A stretch of 773 nt of DNA from Escherichia coli. Lineage in GTDB: Bacteria; Pseudomonadota; Gammaproteobacteria; Enterobacterales; Enterobacteriaceae. Location of the stretch: the NCBI RefSeq assembly GCF_003334405.1, contig NZ_QOWM01000052.1. One strand, given 5' to 3'. Both the position numbers and the translations under genes were made by a program. Below the pieces are notes generated by a model. The model did not search any database. It had not been told where the DNA came from and saw nothing but the letters and a program-made list of their open reading frames with translations. This document shows, piece by piece, positions 1-773 of the stretch (position 1 is the stretch's first letter; each line of letters begins with the position of its first letter).

Positions 1-773
1 GCCAGCGGCAGGCCGCGATGGTCGCAGTGGTACAGGTGGATTTTTCGCGCCGGCGTGTACACCGGGTCCATCTGGTTTTGCATCTGCTCCACGGTCAGGC
101 CGCACGATGCCAGCCAGCGGCGGCTTTCCTCACTCACCCGGTCAGCCAGGATTTCACTTTCCAGCCGGTCGAGCATCTGCACCAGCACCGGCGGGAACAC
201 CACACTGCCACCGTCTTCGCCGCCGGACTGCTGAAGGGTATCCGCCAGGCTGCGGCGCTGCGTTTTCGCCAGCTCACCGGTGGCGGTTTCAACCCTGATG
301 AGTGGCGTGAAGCTCCCCGGCTGATAAATCGTCTGGATGCGGGTTCTGTCGTTCTGTATCGTGGTCAGGCGGTCGCCGTCCCAGCCGTACCAGGTCACTT
401 GCGGTTTCCGTGACAGCGACATCCAGCCCGTCAGGTCCCGTTCACGCCGCCACACCCGTTTTGCCACCCTGCGGCCCAGCGGGTCGTAAAGATAGCGACT
501 TTCGACCAGCGGCTCTTCATATTGTGTCCGCGTGTAGTGCACCAGCCGGTGCTGACTGTCGTAATGGTACCGGTGAGTCCGCTCATCATCCGTGCGGATA
601 ACCCCTTCCGGGATGAGGTCGGTTTTCTCTGTCAGCCTGCCGTGACGGTCATACCGGTAAAGATAGTGCGCGTCACGGGCGATACGGTTATCCGGCCACA
701 TGCTGAGGGTGCTGTCCGGGTGCAGCTCCGGGTCGGGCAGGCGGTTACCTGCCGGGTCTGTGGCATACGGGAT
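1..773 (-). CDS. rhs: Rhs-family (YD-repeat) polymorphic toxin core protein, internal fragment; partial at both ends (N-terminal side beyond position 773, C-terminal side beyond position 1)
   Basis: Seen in sequence: the reverse-complement frame starting at position 773 (codon 1 = 773..771) runs 257 codons to position 3 with no stop, plus a 2-nt partial codon at 2..1. Hand translation: [258 protein letters not shown]. It contains canonical YD repeats ([42 protein letters not shown]) at roughly 25-38 residue spacing. Established knowledge, recalled not searched: this matches the C-terminal third of enterobacterial Rhs core proteins (E. coli RhsA/B/C-like). GC is about 63% by hand count, as expected for Rhs cores. 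The gene symbol is generic because core paralogs are near-identical and the distinguishing tip is outside the window. Confidence 0.93.

Follow-up and report, generated by a model that had tools for sequence, protein, structure and literature searches.

A 773-base window in the Escherichia coli rhs core that probably represents full-length and orphan copies at once

The window, by which we mean the whole 773-base stretch of DNA analysed here, lies inside the core of an Escherichia coli rhs gene, and both of its ends fall at positions where rhs copies converge or diverge. Since both ends lie at such branch points and the source record has the same 773 bases as the window, the simplest reading is that the window is a complete short contig of a short-read assembly. 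We infer that several near-identical rhs copies were probably collapsed into this contig, which would then belong to a full-length gene and to a ybfO-type orphan alike. The original prediction had left undecided whether the DNA derives from a full-length rhs gene or from an orphan C-terminal fragment, and the likeliest answer is both, in collapsed form. The biology concerned is already known: these are among the best-described and most repeated genes of E. coli, and the main genes as well as the ybfO orphan are annotated in K-12.

The rhs core encodes a YD-repeat shell that encloses a C-terminal toxin, and the toxin is released after cleavage at the DPxGL motif that ends the core. A small gene downstream of rhs encodes immunity, and orphan copies are without the initiation and delivery parts. 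When the window (1-773) was reverse complemented, frame 1 was open across all 257 codons and the remaining two frames of this strand contained many stops. GC by codon position in the open frame was 0.66/0.46/0.77, as expected of coding sequence, and the window had the GC-rich composition of the core throughout (58-65%), the AT-rich tip lying outside it. Residues 1-257 of the translation matched positions 913-1169 of the 1261 positions of the NCBIfam profile NF041261, 'RHS element core protein' (E 7e-167, 557 bits); it is solely the fragmentary nature of the window that keeps this score under the whole-protein cut-off of 2,000 bits. The translation also scored above the threshold of the YD-repeat model TIGR01643 (25.9 bits; cut-off 15.8), and its matches to Pfam RHS and RHS_repeat were weak. 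Open frame and profile match together agree with the original prediction, which had placed the window in the 3' part of an rhs core on the minus strand with the N-terminus to the right of position 773. The following features were assigned within the coding frame:

1-773, minus strand: fragment of the Rhs core ORF of E. coli clade I (rhsA/B/C type), codons ~899-1155, gene nt 2695-3467, open at both ends; assigned from the frame, NF041261 and 99.9% identity to full-length genes.
525-593, minus strand: best-scoring YD repeat (residues 61-83), found with TIGR01643 and weakly with Pfam RHS_repeat.
3-41, minus strand: start of the hyperconserved 'RHS protein' segment, a weak match to PF03527 positions 1-13 (E 0.016).

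The window lies in the 3' quarter of the rhs core and encodes the closing section of the YD-repeat shell, ahead of the DPxGL cleavage motif and of the variable tip. It contains neither the N-terminal region (DUF6531) nor the tip or the immunity gene. The DPxGL end of the core is likewise absent, being situated past window position 1, and Rhs_assc_core is placed just downstream in full-length and ybfO proteins; the corresponding Rhs-associated core domain (TIGR03696) was present in two relatives, the ORF of metagenome contig L030 described below and ybfO. In full genes ~898 codons precede the window, somewhat fewer than the 1,000 or so that had been expected. Among solved structures, Rhs shells come nearest, namely Tse5 and the core of Salmonella bongori Rhs, and they align over residues ~17-171 only. 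The stretch at 41-259 (minus strand; residues ~172-244) is without YD-repeat character and is not covered by the alignment to solved Rhs shells, the PDB matches ending near residue 171. Searches of the window found no Rfam families and no meaningful repeats. A plus-strand ORF at 18-413 (131 codons) gave no family match and runs antisense to the frame with a GC3 of 0.77; it was treated as a shadow ORF.

We then considered the two ends, which carry the main conclusion:

773, minus strand: gene-5' end of the window; the core homology of ybfO-type orphans begins at precisely this base (gene nt 2695).
1, minus strand: gene-3' end of the window, followed by a base (gene nt 3468) that is G or C depending on the rhs copy.

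Upstream of position 773, the six full-length copies compared read …GGATATCCGC, and the K-12 orphan reads unrelated, AT-rich …CTGGGCATTGAT. The base preceding the junction is C in main genes and T in orphans, and farther upstream the two are unrelated. An identical junction was found in K-12 ybfO and in six metagenome orphan contigs. Comparison of the K-12 ybfB-ybfO region with rhsC, made independently of the window, placed the homology between gene nt 2695 and 3738 (97.2% over 1,045 nt). At the opposite end, gene nt 3468 in K-12 is C in rhsA and rhsC and G in rhsB and ybfO; among 55 copies it was G in 37 and C in 18, and a cluster of more differences follows directly. Read on the gene strand past window base 1, a collapsed contig would be expected to continue as GCTCATCAGCAC or GCTTGTCAGCAC in copies of the G type and as CCTTATCAGCAA or CCTTATCAGCAC in copies of the C type. 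The same picture emerged when the five K-12 rhs loci were put into a de Bruijn graph and the ybfO copy was walked: paths converged at the first base of the window and diverged after its last (k = 31, 55 and 77). Of the window sites, 1.7% are commonly polymorphic. For a slice taken at random, we put the probability of both end coincidences at ~1e-5, a figure that takes ~3,400 possible starts and a commonly polymorphic fraction of roughly 2-7%, the latter from a panel picked by a 150-mer from the window and biased towards similar copies. We also looked for a pile-up of other assemblies' contig ends at the two ends of the window; only contig L015 stops within 3 bases of the window's end and the others break at SNPs of their own, so this comparison was uninformative.

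A collapsed contig of this kind would begin where the ybfO-type orphan and the longer rhs gene or genes of one genome first turn identical, and it would halt at the next difference between copies that the assembler could not resolve. The source genome would accordingly be expected to carry at least one full-length rhs gene and at least one ybfO-type orphan. It had been held that the window could not decide between the two kinds of copy and that flanking sequence was needed, yet the ends themselves bear on the question: one falls exactly on the orphan/main junction and the other exactly at an inter-copy polymorphism, which points to both copy kinds in the source with no unique flank assembled. 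The junction is common, being found with a junction-spanning query in 2,655 of 5,426 complete E. coli genomes, and main gene and orphan can be identical over the window. This is the case in metagenome contig L013, which carries a main gene and its orphan with 0 mismatches across the 773 bases, preceded by C and T, respectively. No exact 773-base match was found in the 5,426 complete genomes, which agrees with the window being a merged-copy consensus, or just a rare allele. Three points speak against a collapse. It would be deduced from the window ends alone. An exact match inside one full-length gene (contig L030) means that a real single copy with the window sequence exists. Finally, K-12 copies differ at 5-12 sites of the window and form SNP bubbles between the two branch points of the graph, and an unbroken run of 773 bases needs either a source genome whose copies have been homogenised or an assembler that popped the bubbles.

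The window might instead come from a single copy, as part of one full-length rhs gene of the rhsA, rhsB or rhsC type, with end positions unrelated to any feature of the repeats. We regard this as unlikely, with the following database matches in its favour. Window DNA matched 17,528 places in 3,885 of the 5,426 complete E. coli genomes (median 5 per genome). The top identity was 99.9% (1 mismatch), reached at gene nt 2695-3467 of two full-length genes: one of 1,377 aa in strain H8, at the rhsA locus (yibF side), and one of 1,399 aa in strain I3, at the rhsC locus (ybfA/kdp side). The combination of alleles in the window is unseen in complete genomes, yet is one base away from known genes. The K-12 copies compare with the window as follows:

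rhsA: 5 mismatches, 99.4% over 773 bases.
rhsB: 6 mismatches, 99.2% over 773 bases.
ybfO pseudogene: 7 mismatches, 99.1%, all 773 bases covered.
rhsC: 12 mismatches, 98.4% over 773 bases.
rhsD and rhsE: 78% identity, ungapped homology across the whole window.

K-12 rhsA, rhsB and rhsC share frame, register and GC-rich core with the window and differ from it by 5-12 single bases. The rhsD/rhsE subfamily was rejected as a source at an identity of only 78%. SNP typing was likewise abandoned as a means of naming the paralogue: the window is one mismatch from the rhsA-locus gene of H8, one mismatch from the rhsC-locus gene of I3 and exact in an rhsB-locus contig. SNPs cannot name the locus because rhs cores are too homogenised. 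The clade-I loci examined in E. coli adjoin yibF/selA, nikR and ybfA/kdp, and no vgrG copy neighboured any of them; the expectation that such genes often lie near vgrG or PAAR genes did not hold here. Jackson et al. (2009) likewise described E. coli as an exception to the vgrG neighbourhood (PMC2935791).

Metagenome copies were gathered by an exact match to the 150-mer from the window, which yielded 59 contigs with 56 full placements and had no match in species-representative genomes. Of these placements, 50 continue upstream as core, in line with a full-length source, and 6 are orphans. The only exact 773/773 match among the contigs sharing the 150-mer was L030, where the window sequence sits inside a single full-length ORF of 1,411 aa. 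The RHS_core score of this ORF is 2,647.9 against the cut-off of 2,000, its frame runs to an ATG, DUF6531 lies at residues 46-123 and its PAAR match was insignificant. It is collinear with the K-12 rhsB-yhhH locus (99.09%) and is followed by a yhhH-type small ORF. The closest metagenome matches, including this sole exact one (L030, L039, L041 and L061), are low-coverage contigs labelled marine metagenome, a sign that E. coli may have reached these samples by carry-over or with faecal input.

Copy numbers in complete E. coli genomes point the same way. Gene nt 1-500 were held at ~12,059 places and the gene-5' 100 bases of the window at ~14,212. Copies able to contain the whole window were full-length in ~81-85% of cases and orphans in ~15-19%, shares that we took from a gene-start query together with the junction-spanning query. 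If the window were single-copy, these frequencies would favour a full-length gene. A count at the 500 nt just upstream of the window was dropped as a comparison, as its 17,297 places exceeded the 14,212 at the window's 5' end; the surplus is probably due to megablast also matching the divergent rhsD/E subfamily. Against a single full-length gene stand the ends of the window, of which one is the orphan junction to the base and the other is followed directly by an inter-copy polymorphism. In addition, a single-copy region in an assembly would not end at 773 bases. A collapsed contig remains our preferred reading.

Orphan modules differ in how much of the window they retain, and two further features relate to them:

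1-207, minus strand: part also kept by yibJ-type orphans (96.6% identity over 207 nt in L001 and L004; nothing further upstream).
699-701, minus strand: internal Met codon, residue 25 of the window translation; equals the annotated start of the K-12 ybfO pseudogene (b0703).

The ybfO-type orphan, located downstream of rhsC-ybfB, retains the entire window. With its junction present in about half of the complete genomes, the doubt raised in the original prediction between a full-length gene and an orphan was legitimate. The accompanying statement that orphans tend to keep exactly this region was not supported, the ybfO type being the only class that retains all of it. The yibJ-type orphan (downstream of rhsA-yibA) has core homology from gene nt ~3261 and keeps window 1-207 alone; it was rejected as a source, as the window has 566 more bases of core. 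An ISEc1-split form of the ybfO-type orphan keeps window 1-687, with a 97-base remnant of the orphan start across the insertion. This ISEc1 (ISAs1-family) element, seen at L003:7614-9687, lies within the orphan and is flanked by an 11-base duplication, CCGTATCGCCC (window 677-687, gene strand). The main rhsC of the same strain is also truncated, and this rhsC/orphan locus is decaying.

We consider it highly improbable that the window comes solely from a ybfO-type orphan, that is a 5'-truncated core with tip and ybfC-type immunity gene downstream of rhsC-ybfB. Such an origin would account for the gene-5' end of the window, where the core homology of the orphan starts exactly, and K-12 ybfO (99.1% over the 773 bases) is closer to the window than K-12 rhsC (98.4%). 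One base separates the window from the I3 gene, which bears the ybfO tip. A contig from a unique orphan, however, would extend into the AT-rich spacer and ybfB instead of ending at the junction. In K-12, ybfO (b0703) with ybfC has this AT-rich sequence and ybfB upstream of the point where its core homology begins, and the window does not reach them. Moreover, genomes that bear the orphan almost always have several longer copies (median 4-5 places per genome), and orphans make up only the small shares of eligible copies and of metagenome placements given above. A merger of orphan and longer copies, our preferred reading, places the contig start at the junction.

We also considered whether the orphan might act by itself. 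K-12 ybfO is annotated from L006:7221, which is 72 nt past the junction at 7149, and its start is the in-frame Met codon at 699-701. It is conceivable, and in our view very doubtful, that a ybfO-type fragment is translated alone from this codon, giving a shell-less C-terminal piece with toxin inside the producer cell alongside a ybfC-type partner, and would not merely be a silent reservoir. One study reports a toxin-antitoxin-like role inside the cell for rhs elements of Salmonella (PMC7043789).

The relation between orphan and main gene is best seen in strain I3 (L002:6307-11073), in which a full-length gene at the rhsC locus carries the ybfO tip and the ybfC immunity gene and no orphan lies between them. 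From nt 2695, the I3 gene with ybfC matches K-12 ybfO-ybfC (L006:7149-9220) at 99.67% over 2,100 nt. E. coli shows both states of one toxin tip, attached in I3 and orphaned in K-12, as a natural pair. The layout is the same as that of the rhs-main/rhs-orphan pair of Salmonella Typhimurium LT2, in which main gene and orphan share a core segment that serves as recombination substrate (PMC3967940). The shared segment measures 522 bp with 95% identity in Salmonella, whereas that of E. coli is ~1,045 bp with 97-100% identity. Koskiniemi et al. (2014) reported that the Salmonella orphan is activated by recombination through the 522-bp shared core, which fuses the orphan tip to the main gene (PMC3967940), and Jackson et al. 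proposed that tips are displaced by incoming core-plus-tip fragments (PMC2935791). The idea that orphans are a reservoir swapped in by recombination, also put forward in the original prediction, fits the I3 and K-12 pair and has been shown experimentally in Salmonella. By analogy, the window is predicted to be part of the main/orphan recombination substrate of E. coli.

For genome scans, these results advise caution: a very short source that lies wholly inside a multi-copy gene is likely a collapsed repeat, in which case the question of which copy it represents has no single answer. The ends of such a contig are themselves evidence on which copies coexist. If the window is indeed collapsed, its source strain would hold a delivery-competent rhs gene and a ybfO-type orphan that share at least 773 identical bases, a substrate on which tips may be exchanged between main gene and orphan.
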